A DNA stretch of 64,000 bases from a bacterium (lineage in GTDB: Bacteria; Patescibacteriota; Patescibacteriia; UBA1558; S5-K13). The DNA is taken from assembly GCA_029555085.1 (NCBI GenBank), contig JAKPTO010000026.1, positions 1 to 64,000 of the forward strand. Reading direction: 5' to 3'. The position numbers were made by a program, and so were the translations under genes. The number at the start of each line of letters is the position of its first letter. The stretch's first letter is position 1. The notes under the pieces were generated by a model that saw only the letters and a list, made by a program, of their open reading frames with translations, was not told the origin of the DNA and did no database searches. Positions 31,187-47,408 of this stretch are shown in pieces.

Positions 31187-31978
31187 TTATATTAAAGAAT
31201 TGCCTCTCATCTCATTTGGTTTTGATATGCCCATAACTTTCAATATTGTTGGAGCCATATCATAAGTATTACCGGCTAATATTTGCTGATTTAATTGTTT
31301 TGAATGATTGTGATTTACAAAACTTTTATCTTTCCAAATTTTCGAAATCATAAAAAGGGGAACAAAATTATTGTCCTTGTTTGTGGAAGTATTTGATGTT
31401 ATAAAAATAGCCCCATTAAAAGTTAAAATCGTATCAACTATAGTCTTAACTTTTGAAGAAAGTATTTGAGACACCCTGTCAATATTATTATTCATAAAAT
31501 TTGGATATGCAATAACGGCAAAGTCATATATTTTTTTCTCTATTTCCTTTAAAAACTTTAAAGTTATATTACTTGCCATCATATCTGTATCGTTTATATA
31601 ATTATCAGATTTTGTTTCACTTATAAGTATTTTATTTACTTTTTGATCGCTTATTTTTTTATTATTGTTAAAAAAATAAGAAATGTTTGGGTATAATTCA
31701 GATTCAGCAACATAAAGCTGTTTTAATCCTGCATCACTTATAACATCCTGCAATGATACGCGCACTAATTCATCTTTTATATAAGAACCAGTCCCGAGTT
31801 CTATATAAGAATTCCACGGATAATCAATATTTGTATCAGTGGATCTTAGCATAAAAAATGGAAAAATATTTGCTAAGGTTTTAAAATATAAAAAATTATT
31901 TGTATCACTTGACAAATAATTTATATCAAAAGAATCTATAATTATAAGACATATTGGTTTTAATCTAGATTTATCCAT
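31187..31978 (-). CDS. Degenerate iPGM paralogue (phosphatase-domain scaffold only)
   Basis: Aligns by eye with the adjacent GpmI N- and C-terminal parts (QLYVAESE...YFFN; DMAPTIL...GNSLI). Lacks the central domain and the metal ligands. Confidence 0.7.
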   Translation of the reverse strand: MDKSRLKPICLIIIDSFDINYLSSDTNNFLYFKTLANIFPFFMLRSTDTNIDYPWNSYIELGTGSYIKDELVRVSLQDVISDAGLKQLYVAESELYPNISYFFNNNKKISDQKVNKILISETKSDNYINDTDMMASNITLKFLKEIEKKIYDFAVIAYPNFMNNNIDRVSQILSSKVKTIVDTILTFNGAIFITSNTSTNKDNNFVPLFMISKIWKDKSFVNHNHSKQLNQQILAGNTYDMAPTILKVMGISKPNEMRGNSLI

Positions 31979-31983
31979 AATAA

Positions 31984-33540
31984 CTATTTTATAATTAAAC
32001 TATTTCTCGTCATTTGAGATGGCTTTTTAATATCCATTACATCTAATATTGTTGGCGCTATGTCTCCTAAAATTCCATTTCCTCTTAATTTTTTGTTTTT
32101 ATATTTTTTATTCACCAATATAAAAGGAACCGGATTTGTTGAATGCGATGTGTTTACTTCCCCAGTGTCTAAATCTATCATTTCTTCAATATTCCCATGA
32201 TCAGCTGTTATAAACATTGTGACATCCATTCCCTTAAAAGACTCTTTCATATTGTTTAAACATTTATCCACGGCCTCAACAGCCCTAATTCCTGACTTTA
32301 AAACACCGGTATGCGCAACCATATCAGGATTCGCAAAATTTACTGTAATAAAATCATATTTATCTGCCTTTGTATAATCTATCACCTTTTTTACTAATTG
32401 AAAACAACTCATTTCTGGTTTTTGCGCATAAGAATCAACACTTGGAGATGGAATCATTTCTCTATGCTCGTTAGCTACGGGATCTTTATATCCTCCATTA
32501 AAAAAATAAGTAACATGTGAAAATTTTTCACTTTCAGATATATACAATTGTCGTAAATTAGAAAGTTGCATTGGTAATGTTTGCTTCACATCTCTCGATG
32601 GAAATGCAGTTAATATACTATCTAAATCTGGCCCAAAGTCTGTCATCGAAACAAATTTAATATTTTTCAAGTGCTCGCTTCTTTTAATTGAACATTTATT
32701 TTTTTCACAAACATCGACCTGTACAAATAATTTTGTAAGTTGTCTTGCTCTATCAGATCTAAGATTAAAAAATATTATTGAATCATTGTCTTTTATTTGA
32801 CCAACTGGCTTTCCATTTTTACAAATCACACTTGGCTTGATAAATTCATCTGTCTCTCCTCTATTATATGCCTGACTTATCGCTTCTTCCGCTGAATTAA
32901 CTTTTATACCAACTCCATTTACAATGGCATCATAAGCCATTTCTGTTCTTTGCCATACTTTATTTCTATCCATTGCATAAAACCTACCCACAATTGTTGC
33001 AATAACCTCTCCATTTCTAAAACCAGATCTTAAATCTTTTAAAAATCTAATACTACTATATTGTGAGGAGTCGCGACCATCTGTAAATAAATGTAAAAAA
33101 ACCTTTTTTAGACCTCTTGATTCAACAAGTTTTAAAATTGCTTTTACATGCTCTGGATTAACATGTGGACTCTGATCTCCACTTAAAACACCCATTAAGT
33201 GAACATTAGATTTATTTTGCCTTGCGTGATTTAATGCTTCTAAAAAAGCTGGATTTCTAAAAAATGTCCCATTTTCAATAGCTTTTGTAATGAAAATATC
33301 ATCCTGCAAAACAATTCTTCCCGCGCCAATATTCATATGACCTGCCTCAGAGTTTCCGTCTTGATGCTTCGGCAAACCAACACTAACTCCATGAGCAGAT
33401 AATTGTGTATTTGGATAATTTTTAATAAAAAAATCATATGTAGGGGTTTTAGCAAGCGTCACAGCATTTCCAATTGATGGTTTTGCAATACCCCAACCAT
33501 CTAAAATTATTAAAATATATTTTTCCTTGCGAGTTTTCAT
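31984..33540 (-). CDS. gpmI: 2,3-bisphosphoglycerate-independent phosphoglycerate mutase
   Basis: ILDGWG, GNSEAGH, DGRD, GRFYAMDR, NPDMVAH, TADHGN. Confidence 0.96.
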   Translation of the reverse strand: MKTRKEKYILIILDGWGIAKPSIGNAVTLAKTPTYDFFIKNYPNTQLSAHGVSVGLPKHQDGNSEAGHMNIGAGRIVLQDDIFITKAIENGTFFRNPAFLEALNHARQNKSNVHLMGVLSGDQSPHVNPEHVKAILKLVESRGLKKVFLHLFTDGRDSSQYSSIRFLKDLRSGFRNGEVIATIVGRFYAMDRNKVWQRTEMAYDAIVNGVGIKVNSAEEAISQAYNRGETDEFIKPSVICKNGKPVGQIKDNDSIIFFNLRSDRARQLTKLFVQVDVCEKNKCSIKRSEHLKNIKFVSMTDFGPDLDSILTAFPSRDVKQTLPMQLSNLRQLYISESEKFSHVTYFFNGGYKDPVANEHREMIPSPSVDSYAQKPEMSCFQLVKKVIDYTKADKYDFITVNFANPDMVAHTGVLKSGIRAVEAVDKCLNNMKESFKGMDVTMFITADHGNIEEMIDLDTGEVNTSHSTNPVPFILVNKKYKNKKLRGNGILGDIAPTILDVMDIKKPSQMTRNSLIIK

Positions 33541-33559
33541 TTTATTAAAATTTTTTAAA

Positions 33560-34816
33560 CTATATTAGTTCTTCTATTTCAAGTAATCTGTTATATTTAC
33601 AAATTCTCTCACCTCTTGAAATAGCTCCTGCTTTTATATATTCAGCGCCAACTCCAACTGATAAATCAGCTATAAAATCATCACATGTTTCACAACTTCT
33701 ATTTGCTATAATTATTTTATATGAATTTTCTTGAGCCATTTTGATACAATTTATCGTTTCGGAAACACTTCCTATTTGACTTGGTTTGATAGTAATAGAA
33801 TTCGCGCAATCTTTTTCTATTCCAATCTTTAATCTTTTTGTATTTGTGACAAATAAATTATCACCTATTAATTTTGCATCTTTATTTATTTTATTTAAAA
33901 TATTCTTAAATTGGGTCCAGCTTTCTAAATCATCAGAATCAAATGGGTCCTCAAAATAATCAATTTTATATTTATTAATCCAATCAGAATAATAATTTAT
34001 TAATTCAGTTTTAGATAATTCTAATTTATCTAATTTTATAGAATACTTATTTTTATGTTGATTAAAAAAATTTGAAGCATTAGAATCAATACCGAGTTTT
34101 ATCTTATCCTTATATCCAGATCTTTTTATAGCTTCTAATATGAATAACCACACCTCTTCTGTTTTTGAAAAACTTGGAGCATAAGCACCAACGCTACACA
34201 TTTTTGAATCTTTTCCATTTTCAGACAAAACATTTCCGAGTATATGAAATATTTCAGAACCAGCTCTTAATCTATCATTAAAATTATTAAAATCTTCTGG
34301 AATTACCCAAAATTCCTGAAAATCTAAAACAGAATCACAATGTCTTGCTCCGTTTATAACACTAATAATCGGAGTTGGCATACTAACTTTATTTGAAAAA
34401 TTATAATAACTATTTATAAAATTATACAATTGTTTATTTTCCGAAATAGCGCATAATTTATGTAAAGCTGTTGATACTGACAAAATTGTATTTGCTCCCA
34501 AATTTTCCTTATTTTCTGTTCCGTCAAACTCTATCATTTTCTTATCAAGTTCTATTGGATCGTCAATATTAAAATTTCTTAAAAGACTATTTATTTTCGT
34601 GTTGACATTATCAACCGCTTTTAAAACTCCCATTCCCTTGTATCTATTATTGTCTCTATCTCGAAGTTCGTGTGCTTCATTTTTCCCCACTACAACGCCA
34701 AAAGGCACTGAAGCAAAAGCATATTTATCATTATCTAAAAATACAGTAGTGCTAATTGTAGGCACGCCATAACTATCTAAAATTTCCCTAGCAAATATTT
34801 TTTCTATTTTTGGCAT
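33560..34816 (-). CDS. eno: Enolase homologue with substituted catalytic residues
   Basis: REILDS, ELRD, GAN, QEF, LFVTN, QIGS, KYNRLLEIE give a clear full-length enolase fold; key motifs are altered (see findings). Confidence 0.85.
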   Translation of the reverse strand: MPKIEKIFAREILDSYGVPTISTTVFLDNDKYAFASVPFGVVVGKNEAHELRDRDNNRYKGMGVLKAVDNVNTKINSLLRNFNIDDPIELDKKMIEFDGTENKENLGANTILSVSTALHKLCAISENKQLYNFINSYYNFSNKVSMPTPIISVINGARHCDSVLDFQEFWVIPEDFNNFNDRLRAGSEIFHILGNVLSENGKDSKMCSVGAYAPSFSKTEEVWLFILEAIKRSGYKDKIKLGIDSNASNFFNQHKNKYSIKLDKLELSKTELINYYSDWINKYKIDYFEDPFDSDDLESWTQFKNILNKINKDAKLIGDNLFVTNTKRLKIGIEKDCANSITIKPSQIGSVSETINCIKMAQENSYKIIIANRSCETCDDFIADLSVGVGAEYIKAGAISRGERICKYNRLLEIEELI

Positions 34817-34821
34817 ATTTG

Positions 34822-36003
34822 TTATTTTAATTTATTTTTTTCTAAATATGTAATTGCTGGCAATTTTTTACCTGATAAAAACTCTAGCATTGCTCCTCCA
34901 CCTGTAGATATAAAATCAAATGTATTTTTCATTTTTAACTCATTTAAAAGTCCAACTGTTTCTCCCCCACCTGAATATCTCAATGATTTAGATTTTTTAA
35001 TTTCCTTTATCATTGTTTCTGTAGCATGTCTATATTTTTTAATTTCAAAATATCCCATTGGTCCGTTCCATAAAATAAACTTAGCTCTCTTAATATAATC
35101 TGAATAAATTTTCATTGTTTTTGGACCTATATCTAAAATTATATCATCGTTCTGTAATTTTTGCATATCTTTAATTTCTGATCTCGATTTTTCATTAATA
35201 TTTTTTGAAACAACAACATCAATGGGAGCAATAATTTTTTTTGAGTCCATTTTTCTTGTCGCATCTATCAATTTCACTTCAAATATAGATTTTCCTATAT
35301 TTACACCCCTTGAATATAAAAAATTATTAGCGATTACTCCACCCAGCAAAACTCTATCAAATTTATTAATCAGTTTAGAAATAACTGGGAGTTTTGTATC
35401 TGCTTTTGCTCCCCCCATTATGAGTATAGCATTTTTAAATTTACTATTTAAAACTTTATTTAATTCTTTTATTTCATAGTCAAACCTAAATCCCATATAA
35501 CTTGGTAAATATTTTGTTATTGCGCACGCTGACATGTGTTCTCTATGCGCATTTGAAAAAGCATCATTTACATACAAATCAAATAACTTTGCTAAATCGC
35601 TCGCCATTTTATTATCATTTGTCATTTCTTCCTTATAAAATCTTATATTTTCCAATAGAATAACCTCTCCTTCTTTCATTTTTTCTATATCTTTTGAAAT
35701 ATCCTTTGGCATAGCACTGTCTAATTTTTTTACTTTTTTATTTAAATATTTTGACAAAACATTTGCCACTTTATCCATTTTGTATTTAGCATCATATTTT
35801 CCATCGGGTCGTCCTATATAGGAAATTATTACGGTTTTAGATTTTTTAGAAATTAAATATTTTATTGTTTTCAACGATGATTCTATTCTAAATGTATTTT
35901 CAGGATCAACTTGACCATTTTTTAAAAACGATAAATTTAAATCAAGCTTTAAAAGAACTTTTTTTGATTTTAAATTCACGATACTTTCTAATTTTTTATA
36001 CAT
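34822..36003 (-). CDS. pgk: Phosphoglycerate kinase
   Basis: DLN, GRP, LLENIRF, NDAFSNAHR, GGAK, DIGPKT, WNGPMG, STGGGA. Confidence 0.95.
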   Translation of the reverse strand: MYKKLESIVNLKSKKVLLKLDLNLSFLKNGQVDPENTFRIESSLKTIKYLISKKSKTVIISYIGRPDGKYDAKYKMDKVANVLSKYLNKKVKKLDSAMPKDISKDIEKMKEGEVILLENIRFYKEEMTNDNKMASDLAKLFDLYVNDAFSNAHREHMSACAITKYLPSYMGFRFDYEIKELNKVLNSKFKNAILIMGGAKADTKLPVISKLINKFDRVLLGGVIANNFLYSRGVNIGKSIFEVKLIDATRKMDSKKIIAPIDVVVSKNINEKSRSEIKDMQKLQNDDIILDIGPKTMKIYSDYIKRAKFILWNGPMGYFEIKKYRHATETMIKEIKKSKSLRYSGGGETVGLLNELKMKNTFDFISTGGGAMLEFLSGKKLPAITYLEKNKLK

Positions 36004-36430
36004 ACTTTTCTTTTTTAATTATATTTAAAATATTTTCTGCTTCATCAGAGCTAACGAAAAAAGTAACACCATCTTTTAATTTAATTGAAAGACCGTCCCC
36101 TCTCTTCGCAATAAAAGCAAATTTTTTAACTCTTGAAATAATTCCTAATCCAAAAAAATTCCCCACTGAATTATCTATATAAACCGAATCAATATATTCT
36201 TTTTTTATAAGCCTTTTAAAAATACCAAAACCAAACTCCAGTCCCACGCTAGTAACTTTAAAAGTTAAATAAAAAAAATTAATTACAACAAAAATATCTA
36301 AAACCAATATAGCGAGCCACAAATAATTAAAATTGTTTTTTAAAAAAAACAAAGACACAATAAATACTAAAAAATATATAGATAAAAAAGCAATACTCAT
36401 TCTTTGTTTACTTTTATAAATTATATACAT
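35996..36430 (-). CDS. Small 2-TM membrane protein, bacterial PH-like domain
   Basis: Two TMs followed by a beta-rich soluble part; overlaps the pgk start. Confidence 0.55.
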   Translation of the reverse strand: MYIIYKSKQRMSIAFLSIYFLVFIVSLFFLKNNFNYLWLAILVLDIFVVINFFYLTFKVTSVGLEFGFGIFKRLIKKEYIDSVYIDNSVGNFFGLGIISRVKKFAFIAKRGDGLSIKLKDGVTFFVSSDEAENILNIIKKEKYV

Positions 36431-36431
36431 A

Positions 36432-39200
36432 TTATTTTAAATTGTTTGGAATTGTAAATTGGAAAACTGAACCCTTCCCAAGACCCTCACTTTCAACCCA
36501 AATTTTACCTCCATGAATTTCTACCATTTTTCTAGCTATATAAAGACCGAGTCCAGAGCCATCAGTATTAATCTTTGCGCTGTCATTTCCTCTGGAAAAT
36601 TTAGAAAACAATCTATCTATTTCTTCTTCGCTAAGACCTACTCCGGTATCTTTAATTTTCACAATTATATTTTTATCATCACAATTTAATTCAATATTCA
36701 CAGCACCTTTTGGAGTGTATTTAATAGAATTATCTATTAAATTTAAAAATACGTCTTTTATTTTATCTACATCTAATTTAATTTTTGTTTGATCTTGTTT
36801 CTTCCTTAAATCTTTAAATAACAATGTAATACCTTTTGATTCTGCATTTGGTTTCAAATTTTCAACAGATTCTTTTATAATTTCGGAAATTTCTACTTCT
36901 TGTAAGTCTAATTTCAATCTCCCGGATTCAATTCTTGAAACATTTAAAAACACATTAACAAGTTTTGACATTCTATCGCTCGCAAGAAATATATCTTTTA
37001 AAACTGAATTTTGCTTTGAAGAGAATTTTCCAAAGTCCCCCTCTAACATCATTGACAAATAACCTTTTATTCCAGTAAGCGGTGTTCTAAGTTGGTGAGA
37101 CGCAATTGACAAAAATTCTGATTTTGCTCGATCCAGTTGTTTTAAGTGTTCATTTGCGTCTTCAAGTTCTTCATTTTTTCCCCTTAATTCTTTATATAAA
37201 TTAATATTTTTTATAACAAGTCCTGTTTGATCTGTTAATGCCTTCATAATCTCAATGTCAATTTTTTTAAGTTTATCAATTGGCGCGTATGAGAAAAAAT
37301 CAATTGAACCGATTATTTTATTTTCAGAATACATTGGAACAGCTATAGCTGATTTAGCATTTAATTCTTTTTGCATTTTATCAGCTTGATCTTTTGTTAT
37401 TGCTGGTTTAAACACATCAAATACTGAACTACTTTTTTCTATATTACCAGAAGTCATTGCTTTTATAGCTAAATTATCTTTATTACTAAAGGATACACTA
37501 TATTCATGGGGTTTTTTTGGTAAAAATCCTACAACTTTTTTTATATCTTCATCAATTGTCATTGCTCCTATATACATAGCTTTTCCATCCTCGTCTATAA
37601 AATTAATTACACCAGCCACAAATCCCATTTCTTTTTTTATACTGGTTGCTATAAATGAAGCAACCTCTTGAAAGTCTAAACTTCTTGTAATAACATTGCT
37701 AATTTTTTGTAGCGCTGTTAAGTATTTATTTTTAGTTTCTAAATCTATATTTACTTGTCTCAAACTAAGAGTTGCTCGTTCAACTCTTTCTTGTAAATGA
37801 AGGTTAAGGTCTTGAATTTCATTATATAATTTTGCTTTTTCAAGTGCCATAGCAACTTGTGGTGTTAGAACTGATAATAAACCAATATCTTCTTCAGAAA
37901 AAGTATCTCCTGATAATTTCTTATCAATACAAAGCAATGCTGTTATTTGATTTTCAGAAACAATAGGAGCAATTAATCCTATTTTCATCTTATCTAATCT
38001 ATCTACAATGGATAATAATCTTTGTTTTTCAAGGTCATTTTTTTGTTCTCTTGCTAATCTATCTAACTCTTCCACAACTATAATTTGTTTTTTTTCTTGT
38101 AAATAATTTATTATCTCATCGTTTTTTGTAAAAAATATATCTCCTGATTCAAAACCCTTATACATTCCTGTTACAGTATTTTGATATAAAAAATTGACAT
38201 CTCTACATTTTATAGATTTTTCAAGCTCCTCGGACAAATCAATAAATAATTTTTTAAGTTCAATTTCTTTTGCTATTATAAATCCTAATTTTTTCAAAAC
38301 ATCCTGATAGTCAATTTTATCCTTAAAAAATATTTTATCAGTGATTCGCGCAAGAAAACGCTTTAATGGGTCGAATCCCAAAACTATAGCAAAAGAAACA
38401 AATACTGAAACAAATATTTTAGAAAAACCCTCTGCTTCAAAAAATTGACCAGTAATAAATGTTATTGATGTAAAAGCAAAAGTCACGATACCAACAAGAA
38501 GAAAATATAGAATGCTTTTTGAAACAACAACGCGTATGTCCATAAGACGATACCTAGCTATAGCGTAACCAATTCCCAATATATAAAACATTGTACAAAA
38601 AGATCCAAAAGGGTAGATATTTATTAATTGTGGAAAAAAATTAGTAACTCCGCCACCAAAACTAATTAATGCCGTTACTAAAACATATATTGCTTGTTGT
38701 TTTTTTAACCCACTTAATTTTTTATAATTCCTTAAAAGGATATATATCGATAAAAAAACTAAAACACTAAAAAATAATGGAAAAATCGGATAAATAATTC
38801 CTGGATCTATCCAATGTCTAAAACCAAATTTGGGAGAAATCCCCAATTTAAATAACTTTGTAAAACTTAACAAAGATAATACGCACCCGAATGATAAAAA
38901 AATCCTAAAAACGATTTTATTAACTCCTTTATAAATATCTAATAAAACCAGCACAAACAAAAAGAAAAAAATCGGTATATATATAGCACTAAAATCTAAA
39001 AGATACTGACAAAATAATGCAATATTATATTTTTCAAAAAAAACAACACCAAATAAACCAAAAGACCATACCGATGTTGAGAAACTAACACAGGACCAAG
39101 ACACATTCAAAAGAGATCTCTTGTTTTTTGAAATTACAAAAATACCAATAAATAAACCAAGTATAGATGTAATTAAAGACGATAATCCAAAAAATGACAT
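36432..39200 (-). CDS. Sensor histidine kinase (7TM-type N-terminus, 2 GAF, HisKA, HATPase)
   Basis: Multi-TM N-terminus ending YAIARYRLMDI; GAF-like FSEEDIGLL; H box ASHQLRTPL; NLIDNSIKYT, DTGVG, GSGLGL. Confidence 0.93.
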   Translation of the reverse strand: MSFFGLSSLITSILGLFIGIFVISKNKRSLLNVSWSCVSFSTSVWSFGLFGVVFFEKYNIALFCQYLLDFSAIYIPIFFFLFVLVLLDIYKGVNKIVFRIFLSFGCVLSLLSFTKLFKLGISPKFGFRHWIDPGIIYPIFPLFFSVLVFLSIYILLRNYKKLSGLKKQQAIYVLVTALISFGGGVTNFFPQLINIYPFGSFCTMFYILGIGYAIARYRLMDIRVVVSKSILYFLLVGIVTFAFTSITFITGQFFEAEGFSKIFVSVFVSFAIVLGFDPLKRFLARITDKIFFKDKIDYQDVLKKLGFIIAKEIELKKLFIDLSEELEKSIKCRDVNFLYQNTVTGMYKGFESGDIFFTKNDEIINYLQEKKQIIVVEELDRLAREQKNDLEKQRLLSIVDRLDKMKIGLIAPIVSENQITALLCIDKKLSGDTFSEEDIGLLSVLTPQVAMALEKAKLYNEIQDLNLHLQERVERATLSLRQVNIDLETKNKYLTALQKISNVITRSLDFQEVASFIATSIKKEMGFVAGVINFIDEDGKAMYIGAMTIDEDIKKVVGFLPKKPHEYSVSFSNKDNLAIKAMTSGNIEKSSSVFDVFKPAITKDQADKMQKELNAKSAIAVPMYSENKIIGSIDFFSYAPIDKLKKIDIEIMKALTDQTGLVIKNINLYKELRGKNEELEDANEHLKQLDRAKSEFLSIASHQLRTPLTGIKGYLSMMLEGDFGKFSSKQNSVLKDIFLASDRMSKLVNVFLNVSRIESGRLKLDLQEVEISEIIKESVENLKPNAESKGITLLFKDLRKKQDQTKIKLDVDKIKDVFLNLIDNSIKYTPKGAVNIELNCDDKNIIVKIKDTGVGLSEEEIDRLFSKFSRGNDSAKINTDGSGLGLYIARKMVEIHGGKIWVESEGLGKGSVFQFTIPNNLK

Positions 39201-39204
39201 ATTT

Positions 39205-39861
39205 TTAATTTAATAAAATTTTATTCAAATTTTTTTGACTAATAATTTTTTCCATATATTTATCTGGATTAACAATGAATGGATTTTCAACAATCGACAA
39301 CAAATGTAAATCTGATAAATGATCGCCATATGCATAGCTCCCACTTAAAGAAAGATTTTTTTCTTTTAAAAATTCAAGTACAGCTTGTTTTTTTTGAACC
39401 CCATAAATAACATTTCCTTCTATTGTTCCAGAATAAAATCCATTATTTTTTTGTAATTTTGTAGCTATGCAAAAATCCATTTCCAAAAAATCTGATATAA
39501 TTTTAACAAGTGGATAGATAGATGCTGAAAGTAGAATAGTTATTGCGCCCCTTTCTTTGTGATAATTCAGTATATCAAAAATTTTTTTATAAATTCTTTT
39601 CTTAATTTCGGAATTAAAAAAATCTGTCAATATTTTTTCTAAAGCCACCTCGCTCCAGCCATTAAAAAATTTAAAAACTTTTTCTCTTATTTTTATAACA
39701 TTTTGCACTAATCCTAATTTATAAAAAATAAACCAAATTAATACATAACTATAAAGAAAAAACCCTATTTTCTTGTTTTTAAAAAGGTATTTAATTAAAA
39801 ATTTTTGAGACTGTCCCTTTATAACAGTATCATCTAAATCAAAAAACACTACATAGCCCAT
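39205..39861 (-). CDS. HAD-IB family phosphatase (SerB-like)
   Basis: FFDLDDT, LSAS, K, AYGDHLSD motifs I-IV. Confidence 0.9.
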   Translation of the reverse strand: MGYVVFFDLDDTVIKGQSQKFLIKYLFKNKKIGFFLYSYVLIWFIFYKLGLVQNVIKIREKVFKFFNGWSEVALEKILTDFFNSEIKKRIYKKIFDILNYHKERGAITILLSASIYPLVKIISDFLEMDFCIATKLQKNNGFYSGTIEGNVIYGVQKKQAVLEFLKEKNLSLSGSYAYGDHLSDLHLLSIVENPFIVNPDKYMEKIISQKNLNKILLN

Positions 39862-39868
39862 AAATTAT

Positions 39869-40453
39869 TTAAATTACTAAATTTAATATTTCACTCCTCA
39901 ATCTCTCAGTTAAATCATTTTCATCTAGATCGTTTAAAACAATTTTTTTTCCTATATTAATATCACATTTCTTTAACTTCGGATATTTATCAAATCTAGA
40001 CATTATTTCAAACGCCCCTTTTATACCAACTGGTATTATTGGAACATTTACATTTTTAGCAATTCTAACAGCGCCATTATAAAACTTTCCGAGTTTACCA
40101 TCACTAGATCTAGTGCCTTCAGGAAATATTCCAATTGCTCTACCTTGCTTTAAATATTCGATTGCTTTATTAAGTGATTCTGATTTATCCTTTGAATTTC
40201 TGTCAACTTTTATCTGCTTTGTAGATTTAACAAGCCAACTCCACTGCCATTTTTGAAAAAATACCTCCCCTGCTAAAAAATATATTCTTCTTGGGCAAAC
40301 AGCTATAAGAGTAAGAAAATCAAAATAGCTTGAATGATTTGCACATATTACAAATGGTCCTTTTTTGGGAATATTTTCAATTCCCTTAACACTTCTTACC
40401 CAAACCAACCTAATTAATGTTCCAATTGTATATTTTAAAATCCAGTAAATCAT
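39869..40453 (-). CDS. plsC: Lysophospholipid acyltransferase (PlsC family)
   Basis: NHSSYFD (HxxxxD), FPEGTRS, PIIPV. Confidence 0.9.
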   Translation of the reverse strand: MIYWILKYTIGTLIRLVWVRSVKGIENIPKKGPFVICANHSSYFDFLTLIAVCPRRIYFLAGEVFFQKWQWSWLVKSTKQIKVDRNSKDKSESLNKAIEYLKQGRAIGIFPEGTRSSDGKLGKFYNGAVRIAKNVNVPIIPVGIKGAFEIMSRFDKYPKLKKCDINIGKKIVLNDLDENDLTERLRSEILNLVI

Positions 40454-42211
40454 TTAATTATAAAAACTTCTTATTATTTTATTAAAATGCTCTATTATGG
40501 TTTCTCTTTTTATTTTTAAAGTTGGTGTAAGCTCATCATGTTTTTCATCAAATTGGCGTGACACAAGATAAAAATGAACAATCTGCTCGTACCTAGAAAA
40601 ACCTTTTAATAAATTATTAATCCTATCCCTATAAAAAATTTGTATTTTATCCAAATTTAAATAACTTTTTTCATTATCAACTGCTATATTATTCAAAGAG
40701 CAATATTTTTCTATTTCCTCAAAGTCCGGAACAATTAATGCTATTAGAAATTTTTCATTATTACCGATAACAATGGATTGATTTATATACTTATCATAAT
40801 TCAACACTAATTCAATATTTCCAGGCACAACATTTTTCCCAGTTGATAAAACTATTACTTCTTTTTTTCTTCCGATTATATTTAAAAACCCATCTTTATC
40901 CAAAAATCCCAAATCCCCAGTATAAAACCATCCGTCAGTATCTATTACTTTTTCAGTTGATTCTTTATCATTATAATATTCCTTCATTACAGAGCTACCG
41001 CGAACTAAAATTTCTTTATCATTGTTTATTTTTACTTCTAAATTTTCCAACACAAATCCAACTGTTCCAAGTTTGTATTCATTCGTTTTATTTACAGAAA
41101 TAATTGGCGAAGTTTCTGTGACCCCATATCCTTCTATTATTTTTATACCGACATCTTCAAAAAATCTAGCAATTCTTTTATCCAAACTTGATCCCCCTGA
41201 TATTGCTAATCTTAAATTCCCTCCAAATATATTTCTAATTTTTCTAAAAACAATCTTGTCTAAAATACCACATAAAATTAGTAAAAAAAAATTTATTTTT
41301 TTATTGTGTCTTTTAAGTGAGTTTAATTTGCTTTGATTTTTTATTGCAAAATAAAATAAATTATTTTTAAACTTTGAGTCACTTCTTAAATTATCATGAA
41401 TTTTATCAAAAATTTTCTCAAAAATTCTAGGCACAGAAATAATTACCGTTGGCTTAGCTAGTTTTATATCATCAATAAGTGTTTTTGGGCTTCTGCTATA
41501 ATATATTGAAACACCTGAAACTAACGGAAGAAATTGTCCCGCTACCCTCTCTAGTACATGTGACAGTGGTAAAAATGAAAAAAATATATCATTACTACAT
41601 GTAGGCGTGTATTTTAAAACATTTTCTATATTGCTCAATATATTATAATTAGTAAGTACGGCGCCTTTTGGCATGTCAGTTGTTCCAGATGTGTATATTA
41701 TTGTTGTAACAAGATTTTTATCGTTTATTGGTTCTATCTTTTTATTATTTTCAACTTTTAAAATATCATCAAAATATTTAACATTTTCTTTCTCAACTTT
41801 GTCAAAGGATATTATTTGTAAATCATCTATTAAATGCTCATCAATTCCATAAAAAACATTTAATAATTTGTCGTTTGATATAAAAATTATTTTGGGTTTT
41901 GTTTGTGAAATAATGTAGTCAATATATTTAGTTCCATAAGTTGTATGAATTGGAACTAAAATTAATCCCAAATAATTACAAGCTAAGTCAACAGTAGGCC
42001 ACTCCCATCTGTTTTCAGAAAAAATTACAACCTTATCTCCTTTTTGTAATTTATTCTCAACGAAATAAGAAACTAATTTTAGAATATTTTCATTTAAACT
42101 TTTATAACTAATTTTTCTATAATTACCATTTTCTATGTATGCTAAAGCAGTATTACTTGGATATGTAATAACATTTTTTTTAAAATTAAGATATATGGTA
42201 TTTTGATCCAT
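40454..42211 (-). CDS. fadD: Long-chain fatty acid--CoA ligase
   Basis: IIYTSGTTDMPKG, LPLSHVLER, EGYGVTE, TGDLG, GRKKE, LTPTLKIKR. ATG at 42211 preferred over the upstream TTG. Confidence 0.9.
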   Translation of the reverse strand: MDQNTIYLNFKKNVITYPSNTALAYIENGNYRKISYKSLNENILKLVSYFVENKLQKGDKVVIFSENRWEWPTVDLACNYLGLILVPIHTTYGTKYIDYIISQTKPKIIFISNDKLLNVFYGIDEHLIDDLQIISFDKVEKENVKYFDDILKVENNKKIEPINDKNLVTTIIYTSGTTDMPKGAVLTNYNILSNIENVLKYTPTCSNDIFFSFLPLSHVLERVAGQFLPLVSGVSIYYSRSPKTLIDDIKLAKPTVIISVPRIFEKIFDKIHDNLRSDSKFKNNLFYFAIKNQSKLNSLKRHNKKINFFLLILCGILDKIVFRKIRNIFGGNLRLAISGGSSLDKRIARFFEDVGIKIIEGYGVTETSPIISVNKTNEYKLGTVGFVLENLEVKINNDKEILVRGSSVMKEYYNDKESTEKVIDTDGWFYTGDLGFLDKDGFLNIIGRKKEVIVLSTGKNVVPGNIELVLNYDKYINQSIVIGNNEKFLIALIVPDFEEIEKYCSLNNIAVDNEKSYLNLDKIQIFYRDRINNLLKGFSRYEQIVHFYLVSRQFDEKHDELTPTLKIKRETIIEHFNKIIRSFYN

Positions 42212-42307
42212 TAATTTAGGTGATTTATATTTTAATTGTACCATAATTGGCCTAAAATAAAAAGAAAAAAACGAAGTCAAAATAATGTCCCATTTTTATA
42301 AAAAATA

Positions 42308-42805
42308 TTATTCAAACCATTGTATTGTATAGCCATTTGGCGCCTCTTTTGTAAAATCTCTATGAGGACAAACACCAAAACCAGTATTATCAAATTTCCT
42401 TTCAAATGAAACAATTTGAAATATTGCAAAAGATTTTTTACATCCGTATTCTCCTTCTTGGAATTTATGATATCTGTAATGAAAATTTTGATTATTTAAG
42501 GGATCCGACACATCGGATAAAAAAAATTTCTCAATTAAATTTCTAAATAATGTTTTCCTGGCATCTATTGTTTCATAACTAACATCCCACTCATTTTGTG
42601 TTTGATTGTCTGGTAACTGATCAAACTCTAACTTATATAATTCAATTGCTGTTCTTATTTGTTGCGCATTCTCCATTCTTATCGTGTCTCTAATTTTTTT
42701 TTGTTGACTTTTTGTATACAATCCAATAATTATTGTTGAACAAAGAATAATTGAAACTAAAATTAAAATATTTAAAATAGATTTTGTGCCTTTCTCTGTT
42801 TCCAT
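42308..42805 (-). CDS. Pilin/GspG-like protein
   Basis: N-terminal hydrophobic helix, RDTIR...QIRTAIELY, DP motif, Cys pair; atypical prepilin cleavage site. Confidence 0.6.
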   Translation of the reverse strand: METEKGTKSILNILILVSIILCSTIIIGLYTKSQQKKIRDTIRMENAQQIRTAIELYKLEFDQLPDNQTQNEWDVSYETIDARKTLFRNLIEKFFLSDVSDPLNNQNFHYRYHKFQEGEYGCKKSFAIFQIVSFERKFDNTGFGVCPHRDFTKEAPNGYTIQWFE

Positions 42806-42894
42806 TAAATTTCCAAATAAATACTTATATATAAATTATATAATTTTTTCAATAAAAAAACCACCCTAAACTAAGTAGAGTGATTTTTATAAAA

Positions 42895-43542
42895 TTATTT
42901 TTGTGATTCTTCTTTTGTTTCCTCTGGTTCTTTGGTTTTTTCAGTTGTCTCTGGTGTTTCTGATTTTTCTTCTTCTACTGTCTCTGCCTTAGCTGGTTTC
43001 GCTATTACTATTGGTTGGTCTCCGTCAGTTAAAATTTCAACTCCGGACGGAACTTCTAAATCTGAAACTAAAATCATATCATTATAATTTTCAAGTTTAG
43101 ATATATCTACTTCAATTGATGAAATAATTTGACTTGCGAGACATTCAATTTCAATACGATCCATTGCTTTCACAAGAATCGCTCCTAGTTCTTTTACGGC
43201 TTTTGATTCGCCTGAAAAATTAATTGGGATTTCAACTGTCAATTTATTTTTTGCATCAAATCTATACAAATCAGCATGAATTATTGATCCAGTGATATGA
43301 TCTTTGGCTATATCATGTATAATTACTGGGATTTTTTTGTCTTCAAATTCTAAATTTAAAACCTGTGACTCACCCGTGGTATTAAAAATTTTCATAAACT
43401 CAGAATAAGAAACCTGCAAATTTAAATTTTCATGCTTTGGACCATAAACAACAACAGGTAAATACCCAGACGCTATGAGATTTTTCGCGCTTAAGCCACC
43501 AAAATTTTCTCTTTTTTGCGCTTTTAAGATTAATTCTGTCAT
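42895..43542 (-). CDS. rplY: 50S ribosomal protein L25/Ctc
   Basis: LPVVVYG, HADLY, VEIPINFSGES, acidic tail. Confidence 0.93.
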   Translation of the reverse strand: MTELILKAQKRENFGGLSAKNLIASGYLPVVVYGPKHENLNLQVSYSEFMKIFNTTGESQVLNLEFEDKKIPVIIHDIAKDHITGSIIHADLYRFDAKNKLTVEIPINFSGESKAVKELGAILVKAMDRIEIECLASQIISSIEVDISKLENYNDMILVSDLEVPSGVEILTDGDQPIVIAKPAKAETVEEEKSETPETTEKTKEPEETKEESQK

Positions 43543-43675
43543 TTTTTTAGCTTTCAAGGTTTCGACTTTCAGCTTTCAATTAGCTAAAAACAAAACTCTA
43601 ACTTAATTATTATAATTATCTCATTATAAAACAAGACAAAATTTATGTCAATAATAAATTGTAAGTTAAAAAATT

Positions 43676-44776
43676 TTACAATACACCTTTTTCTATATTT
43701 TTCCTTATAATTCTCATTAATTCCAAATAAAATTCTATATTATTTAAAGTTCCAAGTCTCATGGCTAAAGCATCTTCCACTTTAAACAAGTGATGTAAGT
43801 AAGATTTAGAATATAATTTCAACTCATCAATATTTGAATTTTTATTTATAGCGGATTTATCTTTTTTGAATTCAGCATTTGTTATGTTTATAGTTTTATA
43901 AAATTTTCCTCTCAAATTCTTATTTGTAAAATAATACAATCTTCCATGACGCGCTTCGCGTGTTGGAATTACACAATCAAACATATCTACTCCATTTTTA
44001 ACAGCAGTTAAAATATTATCAGGATAACCAACTCCCATTAAATATCTAGGACTTTTTTCTGGGAGCTTGTCTTTTAAAAATTTTAAAATTCCATACATTT
44101 CTTTATTTGTTTCACCAACAGCGAGTCCACCTATTGCATATCCATCAAATCCTATTTTCATAAGATCGTCTAAACTTTTTTTTCTTAAATCTTTATTTAG
44201 TGCTCCCTGAACAATGCCAAATAATAAATTTTTATTTTTAGGATCAAACTTTTTCTTGGACTCTTTACACTTTTTAGCCCAAATATTTGTTATATTAAGC
44301 GCTTTTTCTGTTGTTTGATAATCTGATTTTGAATCAATACACACATCTAATACCATTTGAATATCTGAATCCAAAACACTTTGAATTTTCATAACTTTTT
44401 CTGGAGTAAATAAATGATTTGACCCGTCATAGGTTGATTTAAAATTAACACCTTCATTAGTAATTTTTCTAATTTTAGAAAGTGAAAAAACTTGAAAACC
44501 GCCAGAATCAGTAAGTATTGGTTTTTTGTAATTTATAAAATTATTTAGAGATCCAAACTTTTTTATAACTTCTAATCCTGGTTTTAAATATAAATGATAT
44601 GTATTTGCTAAAATTATATCTGGATTTAATTTTTCTATGTCAGAAAAACTGAGCGACTTTATAACTCCACGAGTTGCTATTGGCATAAAAAATGGGGTAT
44701 CTATTCTACCCAATTTTGTTTTTAAAATTCCAATTCTCGCACTGGATATTTTTGATTTTTTTAGTATTTTAAACAT
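43676..44776 (-). CDS. tgt: tRNA-guanine transglycosylase
   Basis: TPFFMP, NTYHL, TDSGGFQVFSL, GGLAVGE, DMFDCV. Confidence 0.96.
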   Translation of the reverse strand: MFKILKKSKISSARIGILKTKLGRIDTPFFMPIATRGVIKSLSFSDIEKLNPDIILANTYHLYLKPGLEVIKKFGSLNNFINYKKPILTDSGGFQVFSLSKIRKITNEGVNFKSTYDGSNHLFTPEKVMKIQSVLDSDIQMVLDVCIDSKSDYQTTEKALNITNIWAKKCKESKKKFDPKNKNLLFGIVQGALNKDLRKKSLDDLMKIGFDGYAIGGLAVGETNKEMYGILKFLKDKLPEKSPRYLMGVGYPDNILTAVKNGVDMFDCVIPTREARHGRLYYFTNKNLRGKFYKTINITNAEFKKDKSAINKNSNIDELKLYSKSYLHHLFKVEDALAMRLGTLNNIEFYLELMRIIRKNIEKGVL

Positions 44777-46771
44777 TTATAAATCAATTACTCTTTCTTT
44801 TCCGCTAGCTTTTTTATCTCCTACTAATTCTGATGTTAAATAAGGAAAATCTTTACTAATTTTAGCTCCAGAAAATGAATCCATTCCGGAAATATTAGTT
44901 TGATTAATTAATGTAACTATTTTATCTTTATGATTTTTTTCTGGTGTTAACAATATATTAAATTTCCCTGTATAATCTTTTGACTTTTCTAATGTTTTAA
45001 TTTGCCAAACAACTTCTCGTGTTTCAGAATTATAAACCATATTTCCTTTTCCATAAACATTGGCCTCTCCCCAATCGACATTTGGAGGTAAAATTGTTTT
45101 CACATAAACATCATTTAAATCATTAGTTGGGGACTTTATCTGCCAAACAACTTCGTATGTTGTAGTTTCTCCGACAACTGGTGGAAGTGGACCAGAACCA
45201 ACAGCAAGTCCGTTTTCATCGTAATATCTAACTTTTGATGACGCTTCTATTGGACTATTTAATTTATTAATTATTGTATTGGATAATACTTCTTTTTCCT
45301 CTGAAGATGCATTTTTATATTTTAATTTTGCTTCTGATTTAACTAAATAATCTGTACTTCCTATATATTCATCATCAAATTGATGTAATTTAATTGAAAT
45401 ATTTATTTTTCCCTCTTGATTTTTTGCTAATTTTGCTAAAGATGGTATAGAATTTTTATCCCAAGTTATTGATAAATTATCTTCATTAAAATCTCCATTA
45501 AAATTATCTTGTAATGTTTCTTTGTCTAAATATTTTGAATCCAATTTTAAATTAATTACAATATTAGTTATTGCATCTTCTGAATTATTCTTATAATGTA
45601 ATTCATATTTTAATTCATCTCCCCAGTTCACAACTGCGTCAATTGGATTATTGTTTATGGAAATTTGCAAAGGAACATCAGAAGGAACAGACAATGTATC
45701 TTTTGAAACTTTTATATATGGAATCCATTCTAAAACTAAATCGTTCTCTAAATTATGCTCAATACTATATAGAGATTTTATTTCAATTATGGCATTAAAT
45801 GTTGATGTCGTATTATTTGCTAAATCTAAAAATCCTGAGACCTTTATTTCACCGGAAGATTTTTTTTGCAAATCTCCCAAATTCCAAGTATTTTCTGATA
45901 TTTGCTCTAGAGAATCGGCATTTACTTCGGATACAGAAAAACCACTTGGATATTCAAATCTAATTCTCGCATTTAATAAATTATTATCAGAAATATTTTT
46001 ATATAAAATCTTATAAGCAACTCTATTGTTATTTCCAATCTCAGATGGCGAATCAATGCTCAATTCCATTAATGTTTTTTCTATTTTTATTGTGTGACTA
46101 ACTTTTGTTTCAAAATTTGAACTAAAATTTACGGGCTCATAAGCAATCGCGGATTCTATATTAAGCTCATCGTTGGTGTTTCCAATTACCTGAATATCTA
46201 AATTAATCTTTCCGTCTTCACCTGGATCCAAATCTCCTATTTTCCACAAATTAGCTCCTAAATTATCTGGTTCCTTACTTGAAGATACATAATAAACTCC
46301 TTCGGGATAATTTATGCGAAGTTCAACATTTTTCACTTTTACTTGTTCTTTATTTTCATATTTTATTGTGAGTCCAACTTTATGCCCAGAAATTACAGAA
46401 TCTTCTCCGGAAATTTCTAACACCACGCCATTTCCACTTAGTGGCTTAAAATTATTAAAAAAATTCCAACCCAAATAACTTACAATAGCAACTGCTAAAA
46501 GAATAAAAATAATAATCCATAATGATCTCATGCCTTTGTTTTTACCTTTATCAAATGTGGAAATGTTTTTTCTTCTACCCCAAATATTATAAATATCATC
46601 AGTGGAACCAACTTTATCGTGATTGGGATTTTTTATACCTTTTAATTGCCTTTTAACAGGCATTCTTGGTTCCGCATAACTTTTACGGTTTCTTTTCTCT
46701 GAAGAAATTTTTTTTATATTTACTCCATCGCCTAAATTTGGTTTTGATTTTGGATTCAATGTTTTTGACAT
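44777..46771 (-). CDS. Membrane-anchored Ig-like (DUF11-like) repeat protein
   Basis: Single TM, repeated Y.N...W..GDL beta modules, GSGPLPP.VGE.TTY motif. Confidence 0.65.
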   Translation of the reverse strand: MSKTLNPKSKPNLGDGVNIKKISSEKRNRKSYAEPRMPVKRQLKGIKNPNHDKVGSTDDIYNIWGRRKNISTFDKGKNKGMRSLWIIIFILLAVAIVSYLGWNFFNNFKPLSGNGVVLEISGEDSVISGHKVGLTIKYENKEQVKVKNVELRINYPEGVYYVSSSKEPDNLGANLWKIGDLDPGEDGKINLDIQVIGNTNDELNIESAIAYEPVNFSSNFETKVSHTIKIEKTLMELSIDSPSEIGNNNRVAYKILYKNISDNNLLNARIRFEYPSGFSVSEVNADSLEQISENTWNLGDLQKKSSGEIKVSGFLDLANNTTSTFNAIIEIKSLYSIEHNLENDLVLEWIPYIKVSKDTLSVPSDVPLQISINNNPIDAVVNWGDELKYELHYKNNSEDAITNIVINLKLDSKYLDKETLQDNFNGDFNEDNLSITWDKNSIPSLAKLAKNQEGKINISIKLHQFDDEYIGSTDYLVKSEAKLKYKNASSEEKEVLSNTIINKLNSPIEASSKVRYYDENGLAVGSGPLPPVVGETTTYEVVWQIKSPTNDLNDVYVKTILPPNVDWGEANVYGKGNMVYNSETREVVWQIKTLEKSKDYTGKFNILLTPEKNHKDKIVTLINQTNISGMDSFSGAKISKDFPYLTSELVGDKKASGKERVIDL

Positions 46772-46774
46772 TTT

Positions 46775-47398
46775 TTAAAAAGAATTTAATTTTTTTTCTA
46801 AAACTTTTTCAAAATATGTTTTTATATAATTTAAAATTATCAATTTATCATAGTTTAATTTTAACACTAATTGTCTATTTTTTAAATATGTATTTTCAGT
46901 AAAAATATCAATAATTCTCATTTCTTTCTTATTTAAAGAGATTTTGTTTTTTTCATAAAATCCAAATTTCTTCATAATACACAATAAATAACATATTTCT
47001 AAATCTGACTCATTGTATAAATTAGAATTTACATCTTTTAAAAACTCAACTGTATTTTTGTAAATATATTTTTCCTGCATATTTTCTGGCAAAAAATTAA
47101 GTAAAATTTCTGACATTTTATTAAAAGACAAAAATGCTCTAAAATTTTTATTTACATCAAAAGAATTTATAACGCTAACCTGCGCTATTTTATTAATTGT
47201 CTTTCCTTGTGATAACATAAAAAGACATAAATTACCGGGCATTAAAAATCCAGATAACTTACTTTTTGGAGATGAAACTGATTTTGCAACAGCACTAATA
47301 AGTCCATTTTCAAAAGTAAAAATACGATAAAATTTATCTTCATCTTTAAAATTTTTCGCATACAGGATTATTCCTTGCGTTATATATTCACTATTCAT
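46775..47398 (-). CDS. recO: DNA repair protein RecO
   Basis: TQGIIL...FKDEDK...FTFENG.I.AVAKS...SKLSG. Confidence 0.8.
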   Translation of the reverse strand: MNSEYITQGIILYAKNFKDEDKFYRIFTFENGLISAVAKSVSSPKSKLSGFLMPGNLCLFMLSQGKTINKIAQVSVINSFDVNKNFRAFLSFNKMSEILLNFLPENMQEKYIYKNTVEFLKDVNSNLYNESDLEICYLLCIMKKFGFYEKNKISLNKKEMRIIDIFTENTYLKNRQLVLKLNYDKLIILNYIKTYFEKVLEKKLNSF

Positions 47399-47408
47399 TT
47401 AGGCCCTA

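Follow-up and report, generated by a model that had tools for sequence, protein, structure and literature searches.

A conserved Patescibacterial gene cassette places a HAD-IB phosphatase, and usually a PlsC-type acyltransferase, beside a HisKA_7TM histidine kinase

How Patescibacteria supply their membranes with lipid without fatty-acid synthesis is an open question, and signalling in these bacteria is essentially unstudied. Both subjects meet in four genes on the minus strand of contig JAKPTO010000026.1 (assembly GCA_029555085.1; Patescibacteriota, UBA1558, S5-K13), of which positions 1 to 64,000 were analysed and are referred to here as the window. In the order of their transcription, these genes encode a FadD-like acyl-activating enzyme of the ANL family (40454..42211; 585 aa from ATG), a PlsC-type (LPLAT/AGPAT) acyltransferase with a hydrophobic N-terminal helix (39869..40453; 194 aa), a HAD-IB (TIGR01490) phosphatase whose cap helix (residues 34-52) is very hydrophobic (39205..39861; 218 aa), and a sensor histidine kinase (36432..39200; 922 aa). 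A first-pass annotation of this DNA had taken them for a lipid module coupled to the kinase, which raises the question of whether the enzymes and the sensor belong together or simply lie side by side. The open reading frames and the gaps that separate them (0 bp for FadD/PlsC, 7 bp for PlsC/HAD and 4 bp for HAD/kinase) are as that annotation gave them. Close spacing was rejected as evidence of coupling because the next five genes, those of glycolysis among them, are packed as tightly: 1 bp separates the kinase from the following gene, which in turn shares 8 bp with pgk, pgk, eno and gpmI are set 5 and 19 bp apart, and the tight co-directional string spans 31187 to 50288. It is adjacency kept in other genomes, not spacing, that lifts the linkage of the four genes above chance.

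This linkage was anchored in three ways, namely on PlsC, on the HAD and on the 7TM domain of the kinase. Within a set of 41 related genomes, an orthologous PlsC (at least 41% identity) was found in nine, with a 7TM kinase downstream in every case; seven of these nine belong to the family of the window and also keep the flanking genes tgt, L25, pgk, eno and gpmI, and the other two (G029 and G033) belong to another family and have unrelated flanks. The kinases that adjoin PlsC in the relatives are orthologues at 42-73% identity, and FadD orthologues (44-77% identity) occur in nine relatives. When the PlsC alignment was run against about 186,000 species genomes, at least 80 loci were returned; the nine Patescibacteria-type loci among the matches listed include seven new genomes, all seven with the HAD and six with a 7TM kinase directly after it, and none of the 71 other PlsC loci among the matches listed (Bacillota, Actinomycetota, archaea and others) showed either HAD or 7TM kinase by phmmer. 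On the HAD anchor, 56 genomes of a 401-genome sample of the phylum matched the HAD profile at E<=1e-10 (a tally that includes one unpublished genome, which was not used). The score reached at least 150 bits in five genomes, four of which carry the trio (G000, G005, G346 and G408), and neither PlsC nor a 7TM kinase stood alongside any of the 51 lower-scoring HAD paralogues. On the kinase anchor, a single one of the 20 next-best 7TM loci was linked (G102, with the order PlsC-DUF362-kinase), the other 19 having neither HAD nor orthologous PlsC. Metagenomes were scanned with the motif GGGxTNFFPQ, by which the 7TM domains of the cassette form a distinct HisKA_7TM subgroup, and the 80 loci recovered fell into 65 clusters at 90% identity. 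Where enough DNA was available, an orthologous HAD lay directly upstream of the 7TM domain in 56 of 61 clusters, most commonly with a 4-bp overlap (14 clusters), PlsC lay upstream in 38 of 46, FadD in 5 of 28, and a receiver gene downstream in 6 of 34. Altogether, the matches listed comprise 19 distinct Patescibacteria genomes with orthologous PlsC; they belong to at least five GTDB families, in more than one class, and their flanks differ. A check set beforehand, namely that HisKA_7TM kinases recur next to fadD, plsC and HAD-IB genes across Patescibacteria, was borne out strongly, with an adjoining 7TM kinase in 18 of the 19 genomes and the HAD in 16.

The possibility that there is no functional link, and that the adjacency is inherited packing in very compact genomes, draws on the tight co-directional gene string around the cassette, on the flanking genes kept within the family, and on the single origin of the linked kinases. 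Of the 18 linked kinases, 17 group in a single clade (SH-aLRT 92) when 47 7TM domains are compared in a tree, so that the association would have arisen about once and was then retained or moved as a unit. Packing is disfavoured and barely credible, as the adjacency survives a full change of flanks in at least five families, in more than one class and in the 56 metagenome clusters, and the controls were negative for 19 of 19 other 7TM kinases, 51 of 51 paralogous HADs and 71 of 71 other PlsC loci listed. The four genes are thus confirmed as one instance of a conserved Patescibacterial cassette, and the linkage is both real and deep. A published description of a conserved HAD-HisKA_7TM-PlsC cassette was not found in a search that covered the literature outside subscription journals and supplementary files.

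The composition of the cassette is narrower than the four genes of the window would suggest. Its invariant core is the HAD-IB gene followed by the HisKA_7TM kinase, usually with PlsC before them, and FadD is optional. The module of fadD, plsC, HAD and kinase proposed at first therefore stands for the HAD, the kinase and in most cases PlsC, but not for FadD, which was present in the 5 of 28 metagenome loci mentioned above and has its place taken by a second PlsC in many lineages. A FadD upstream of PlsC goes together with long, GAF-bearing kinases, and a second PlsC upstream of PlsC (fused in L022, where two PF01553 stretches are found) with short kinases of about 520-550 aa without GAF, in which the 7TM domain is the sole sensor. 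The slot between PlsC and the kinase may hold the HAD by itself, a methyltransferase plus the HAD (G006), or a FAR-like SDR plus the HAD (G012 and L257). Recurrent accessory genes include FAR-like SDR, alpha/beta hydrolase, DAGK_cat lipid kinase and methyltransferase genes, and an alpha/beta hydrolase (Hydrolase_4) is encoded 5' of FadD in G033, G408, L193 and L201. A metagenome island (L205:1577-10403) carries, in order, PlsC, HAD, a P-loop kinase, DAGK_cat, SDR, 7TM, HAD, 7TM, methyltransferase, 7TM and fatty acyl-CoA reductase, and its three HisKA_7TM proteins have no kinase domain. Since the HAD of this island sits beside kinase-less 7TM proteins, it tracks the 7TM domain itself, in a setting of lipid enzymes. 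The coupling of module and kinase put forward in the first-pass annotation is accordingly conserved, with the qualification that the tightest pair is that of the HAD with the 7TM domain, whether or not a kinase is attached.

What the enzymes might do was approached through their families and through the lipid genes of the source genome (1.02 Mb in 53 contigs, 99% complete; a genome of the same family bears the NCBI label Candidatus Komeilibacteria). The acyl-activating enzyme matched AMP-binding (PF00501; 231.9 bits) and AMP-binding_C_3 of Pfam. Its best NCBIfam match was the FadD11-like model NF038343 (264.6 against a cut-off of 950), and it scored 141.4 with the E. coli-type model NF006523 (cut-off 884); as all FadD equivalog models scored far below their cut-offs, "FadD" is a family-level name here, within the wider ANL family. 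The acyltransferase scored above the cut-offs of both PF01553 Acyltransferase (117 bits against 23) and TIGR00530 (108.4 against 102.95), and is matched by the Thermotoga maritima PlsC structure 5kym (E 2e-18). The PlsC/LPLAT family has a catalytic HX4D block and an FPEGTR block, and the corresponding NHSSYFD (H40-x4-D45) and FPEGTRS motifs are invariant in eight orthologues. The protein can also be aligned to the acyltransferase portion of two Aas models, NF006386 and NF005291; by sequence it fits the Aas acyltransferase domain about as well as it fits PlsC, and 1-acyl-glycerol-3-phosphate, the acceptor expected of PlsC, is one candidate acyl acceptor. By tblastn, the genome holds one FadD, one PlsC and one such HAD. 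Fatty-acid synthesis, expected to be lacking, indeed left no match in the genome for PF00109, PF02660 or PF00550; the ketoacyl synthase (PF00109) and PlsY (PF02660) were likewise found in none of the five cassette-bearing genomes, and the absence of a match to acyl carrier protein (PF00550) in this 99% complete genome sets the system apart from an Aas-type route. A CDP-alcohol phosphatidyltransferase gene and a short CdsA-like gene are paired on contig C37. Given the single FadD and PlsC and no ketoacyl synthase, PlsY or acyl carrier protein, FadD and PlsC form the only recognisable acyl-to-glycerolipid route in the cell. In the view put forward in PMC7242380, bacteria of the Candidate Phyla Radiation depend on outside lipid, and the lipid gene set of this genome fits that view.

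The third enzyme bears most directly on the tie between lipid chemistry and signalling. The HAD matched PF12710 (96.3 bits) and passed the cut-off of TIGR01490 HAD-IB (146.4 against 98.3), and it is not a SerB equivalog (TIGR00338; 39 bits against 144.15). The motifs D8-x-D10-x-T12, S112, K157 and D180/D184 are present; D8, T12, K157, D180 and D184 are invariant among the orthologues, and D10 is found in 12 of 14. The predicted structure (pLDDT 93) has a Rossmann-like core and a helical C1 cap like that of phosphoserine phosphatase, and its closest fold is 3fvv, a Bordetella protein of unknown function (TM-score 0.9), followed by SerB entries at about 0.7. The cap helix reaches a Kyte-Doolittle value (19-residue window) of 1.78 at residue 34, with 1.5-2.3 in relatives of families f1 and f5 and a median of 1.14 in the 51 HAD paralogues. 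A cap helix as hydrophobic as a membrane segment is suggestive, although not decisive, of a membrane-facing HAD in the clade of the window. A fusion of HAD and PlsC, named for actinobacteria in the first-pass annotation, was verified in Cryptosporangium (L156), where TIGR01490 and PF01553 are joined in one protein of 574 aa with both motif sets intact; in Propionibacteriaceae, a fatty acyl-CoA reductase (NAD_binding_4 plus Sterile) is fused to a TIGR01490-type HAD in a protein of 725 aa (L153:1411-3588). A word-based search for longer fused relatives of the window HAD, which is weak evidence, returned none, and in the window HAD and PlsC are separate genes 7 bp apart, not the single polypeptide of a bifunctional HAD-PlsC protein.

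These data bear on the main rival explanation, in which the HAD serves signalling in an accessory role instead of acting on lipids: it would dephosphorylate the kinase, a receiver or a small phospho-donor, and PlsC would be a frequent but secondary neighbour. HAD and kinase do form the tightest pair, at 56 of 61 and often with the 4-bp overlap, against 38 of 46 for PlsC and kinase; at eight loci the two occur without a nearby orthologous PlsC. Paralogous HAD-IB genes (74-81 bits with the cassette profile) also lie directly after ordinary two-transmembrane kinases, in a reversed kinase-HAD pairing (L115:5557-7683 and L135:6971-9072). Against this, Actinobacteria have members of this HAD family joined to PlsC and to fatty acyl-CoA reductase with no kinase involved, the HAD of L205 pairs with 7TM proteins that have neither kinase nor receiver, the cap helix in the clade of the window is hydrophobic like a membrane segment, and DUF362, which is not a phosphatase family, can replace the HAD. 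A purely signalling role for the HAD is on balance improbable.

The kinase, as predicted, consists of a HisKA_7TM sensor domain (38535..39176, residues 9-222; PF16927, 42.4 bits against a cut-off of 28.6), two further predicted helices, two GAF domains and a kinase core, all on the minus strand. The first GAF domain (37842..38111, residues 364-453) is the best Pfam stretch of PF01590 (44.7 bits over two stretches), the second (37212..37679, residues 508-663) matches GAF_2 (PF13185; 41.7 bits), and the core (36444..37127) is made up of HisKA (residues 692-760; PF00512, 60.9 bits) and HATPase_c (residues 810-919; PF02518, 97.9 bits), so that the protein qualifies as a histidine kinase with HisKA_7TM input. 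Its H box (36921-37127) reads SHQLRTPL and includes the phospho-acceptor His. The 7TM domain was modelled (pLDDT 83) as seven helices with a beta hairpin at 118-133, to which the long form adds two helices. An Atlas look-up of the sensor domain returned HisKA_7TM again, and a Foldseek comparison of the model with the PDB gave only weak, generic matches to seven-helix G-protein-coupled receptors (E 2e-3 or worse, TM-score about 0.45-0.5); lipid-receptor entries were among these weak matches, and nothing was drawn from them. The invariant positions of the cassette-clade 7TM domain are Trp, Tyr, Phe, Gly, Pro and Gln. None is ionisable, for which reason an enzymatic role was set aside and a binding domain fits better. 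A complex prediction for PlsC, the HAD and the 7TM domain scored 0.00, which counts neither for nor against binding. The domain is common, 146 of the 401 Patescibacteria genomes matching a cassette-derived 7TM profile at E<=1e-8. HisKA_7TM (PF16927) is listed among archaeal and bacterial sensor domains (PMC5847659, PMC6944256), and the available parts of these two sources, which are the literature located, give no ligand, function or gene context for it.

Both kinases encoded in the genome are of the 7TM type; besides the one in the window there is a 901-aa hybrid kinase on contig C30. As the first-pass annotation had noted for the window, no response regulator is found there, and in fact no receiver domain (PF00072) occurs on the whole contig, so that the kinase does not form a two-component system with an adjacent regulator. 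PF00072 matches in the genome were confined to contigs C40, C41, C30 and, weakly, C36, where they fall in the hybrid kinase and in three short frames (155, 132 and 140 aa); the stand-alone receivers are all receiver-only. One of them lies between PilB-like and PilT-like T2SSE ATPase genes in a type IV pilus cluster (C41:18777-23815, L002), and another between NDK and an MBL-fold, ComEC-like gene (C40:441-3795, L001). Among relatives, a receiver stands beside the cassette kinase in the six metagenome clusters already counted and in L015 and L016, again as a receiver-only protein of 122-145 aa. As the receivers of the genome and those beside cassette kinases are receiver-only, a transcriptional output is unlikely; it may be speculated from the gene positions that the kinase acts through protein-protein contact on the pilus or uptake machinery.

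The same observations tell on a classical autoregulated operon, in which the kinase would sense an unrelated signal and a DNA-binding regulator would control the adjoining lipid genes. It is common for a kinase to be encoded next to its target genes, and the gene string appears to be a single transcription unit with no terminator-like site between the genes. This explanation is nonetheless very improbable, in that a search of the genome yielded no response regulator that carries an output domain, the receivers adjoining cassette kinases elsewhere, of 122-145 aa, have no other domain, and it is the sensor domain itself, and not the kinase alone, that tracks the HAD.

Taken together, the cassette may join a module that acylates and dephosphorylates lipids to an intramembrane sensor of lipid or membrane state, which signals through receiver-only regulators; the chances for and against this reading, in which biochemistry and ligand are deduced from families and linkage, seem to us evenly balanced. 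In the absence of fatty-acid synthesis, FadD would activate a fatty acid taken from outside. PlsC, judging from its family and intact motifs, would acylate a lysolipid or an acceptor of glycerophosphate type, and the putatively membrane-facing HAD would act as a phosphatase on a lipid phosphate, for example lysophosphatidate, phosphatidate or phosphatidylglycerophosphate. The sequence of activation, acylation and dephosphorylation to a mono- or diacylglycerol envisaged in the first-pass annotation would be plausible, and a PgpC-like or other lipid-phosphate role for the HAD is just as conceivable. The 7TM domain, with no conserved catalytic residues and as the sole sensor of the short forms, may then read the lipid or membrane state set by the enzymes, as the linkage suggests, and the kinase would signal to receiver-only regulators and not to a transcription factor, with pilus or uptake machinery as a speculative output. 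Contigs from RNA libraries of three studies (at least 99% identity) match parts of each of the four genes, and the junction of FadD and PlsC is spanned by two contigs of a single study; as carry-over of DNA is possible, this lends the reading weak support. The DNA runs that contain the stretch are all possible sources of the assembly and were left out of any claim on habitat.

Several observations weigh against this module-and-sensor reading. The HAD is missing in L213, L227, L233 and L255, and its place is taken by DUF362 in two genomes of the same genus as the window (G001 and G003) as well as in G102 and L182; the phosphatase step that had been assigned to the module is thus usual but dispensable, two genomes of the same genus doing without it. 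An orthologous PlsC was not found within 3.5 kb at 8 of the 46 metagenome kinase loci, and G112 has an orthologous HAD alone. HisKA kinases generally need an acidic residue at the position after the His for autophosphorylation, and in the window kinase this residue is Gln. Gln also stands there in 11 of 11 cassette kinases from genomes with a detectable H box, in 33 of 34 from metagenome loci and in 9 of the 13 7TM kinases outside the cassette; the kinases compared come from loci L005-L022, L094-L095 and L158-L257. The nearest solved relatives of the HAD are a protein of unknown function and phosphoserine phosphatases, which makes a soluble substrate possible; the modelled fold does not point to a particular substrate. 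The cassette is rare, at 5 of the 401 sampled genomes. Profiles and search pattern alike derive from cassette members and so favour like cases, and because the linked kinases are one clade, the association arose about once and its instances are kin, not independent events.

A more specific form of the module-and-sensor reading, in which HisKA_7TM would be a lipid receptor, the HAD and PlsC would make or consume its ligand (of lysolipid, phosphatidate or diacylglycerol type) in the same membrane patch, and the kinase would relay the supply of host lipid via receivers to the type IV pilus or DNA uptake, is a doubtful one. If it were true, an episymbiont would couple host attachment to its need for lipid, a first ligand class would be in hand for an orphan sensor domain found in about one third of the sampled Patescibacteria, and a first signalling circuit would be assigned in the Patescibacteria radiation. 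A different proposal, which takes up the synthase-receptor pair of the first-pass annotation, is that of a lipid autoinducer pair, in which the enzymes would make a dedicated mono- or diacylglycerol-like signal, diffusible or delivered by contact, and the 7TM kinase would be its receptor for host or density sensing, with no part in membrane upkeep. The conserved adjacency of enzymes and receptor would suit such a pair, as would the receiver-only output with one receiver inside a pilus ATPase pair, and the tailoring genes (FAR-like SDR, methyltransferase, DUF362 and DAGK_cat) resemble those of a small-molecule pathway. The proposal is decidedly improbable, however: FadD and PlsC are the sole recognisable genes for acyl activation and glycerolipid acyl transfer and so more likely serve bulk membrane lipid, the cassette has no export gene and shows no sign of product release, and it occurs in only five of the sampled genomes. 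Whichever form of sensing may apply, the cassette ties the only recognisable acyl-lipid enzymes of the genome to one of its two sensor kinases across distant lineages and gives HisKA_7TM a testable functional context. Its enzymes are small and soluble or monotopic and, with the kinase, could be expressed and assayed without culturing the organism; if the kinase were both to read lipid supply and to signal to pilus proteins, there would be a mechanistic link between attachment to the host and nutrient status.

Known systems resemble parts of the cassette. The Aas protein of E. coli is a fused acyl-activating/acyltransferase system. In Chlamydia trachomatis, the lysophospholipid acyltransferase CT775 and the acyl-ACP synthetase CT776 (ACP, acyl carrier protein) are described in PMC5693948. 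As in Aas and CT775-CT776, an ANL acyl-activating enzyme stands beside a PlsC-family acyltransferase in the window, putatively for the incorporation of exogenous fatty acid into the lipids of a host-dependent bacterium. Unlike the cassette, Aas and CT775-CT776 use ACP, to which the genome has no PF00550 match, and they have neither HAD phosphatase nor sensor kinase; FadD, moreover, is optional in the cassette. Plant sn-2 GPAT4/6 enzymes reportedly have phosphatase activity (Yang 2010). They share with the actinobacterial HAD-PlsC fusions the pairing of a HAD-IB-type phosphatase with a PlsC-type acyltransferase that is seen here. The fusions, however, run from HAD to PlsC and have no kinase, whereas the cassette consists of separate genes, PlsC then HAD, with a histidine kinase attached. 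With regard to the sensor, DesK (with the Des desaturase) and SaeS (modulated by the fatty acid kinase FakA) are intramembrane-sensing kinases that read lipid state. Like these, the cassette kinase is membrane-embedded without a real extracytoplasmic domain and is tied to acyl-lipid enzymes, but its sensor is the HisKA_7TM fold and not the 4-5 transmembrane helices of DesK and SaeS, which act through DNA-binding regulators where only receiver-only proteins are seen for the cassette. We know of no conserved enzyme-kinase gene pair with overlapping reading frames for either DesK or SaeS. Fusions of VanZ, RDD and histidine kinase, noted in a survey of the Lipocone superfamily (PMC12419801), similarly couple a lipid-modifying activity to cytoplasmic signalling; their families are unrelated to those of the cassette, the available passages of that survey do not mention HisKA_7TM, and PlsC has no occurrence in its text. 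The actinobacterial Rv2483c is named in the available part of PMC10593935 only as a PlsC homologue.

Directly 3' of the kinase, the window encodes a 144-aa membrane protein (35996..36430, minus strand) with no Pfam or NCBIfam match. It is kept in genomes of family f1 and in L182 and not in other lineages, and, being limited to the window's own family, is regarded as context outside the conserved cassette. At the other end, a TTG at 42280 is an alternative start that would extend FadD by 23 aa, and orthologues of 586 aa align from the ATG. In a scan for promoters and terminators the counts were those expected by chance, with 89 promoter-like sites (83 expected) and 3 terminator-like sites (3.1 expected). 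With the scan overall at chance, a perfect TTGACA-17-TATAAT lies 5' of the L25 gene (43623-43651, minus strand) and could start a long transcription unit.

Other arrangements of the same families were noted in passing. The DUF362 protein that lies between PlsC and kinase is Cys-rich and of about 380 aa (L006:9624-10784 in G003, L005, L158:3254-4393 and L182); in L017 (3367-4503) DUF362 follows the HAD, at the position of the kinase. A PDB sequence search with the protein returned nothing meaningful. A FadD homologue lies near PlsC at 19 of the 71 non-Patescibacteria loci listed, in 13 of them as PlsC-FadD-PlsC (L033, L041, L053, L055, L060, L062, L067, L077, L082, L084, L085, L089 and L090); the labels of these triplets are uncultured Bacilli, Mycoplasmatota, Erysipelotrichaceae and other metagenome-assembled genomes, many from animal-gut samples, and the triplets look like a module for fatty-acid scavenging in its own right, in which HAD and kinase are absent. 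Tandem bacterial-type PlsC genes are present in metagenome-assembled genomes labelled Woesearchaeota (L023:8355-9633 and L024:8361-9636), and these are 39-41% identical to the window PlsC, closer than most bacterial matches listed. A recurring trio of a kinase-less HisKA_7TM protein, an Asparaginase_N-like protein (about 325 aa) and an uncharacterised one (about 200 aa) was found in the same genome on a contig other than that of the cassette (C23:20345-22639), in L007 (4821-7075) and in L021 (3534-6477), and it lies just upstream of FadD in G006, G033, L179 and L201.

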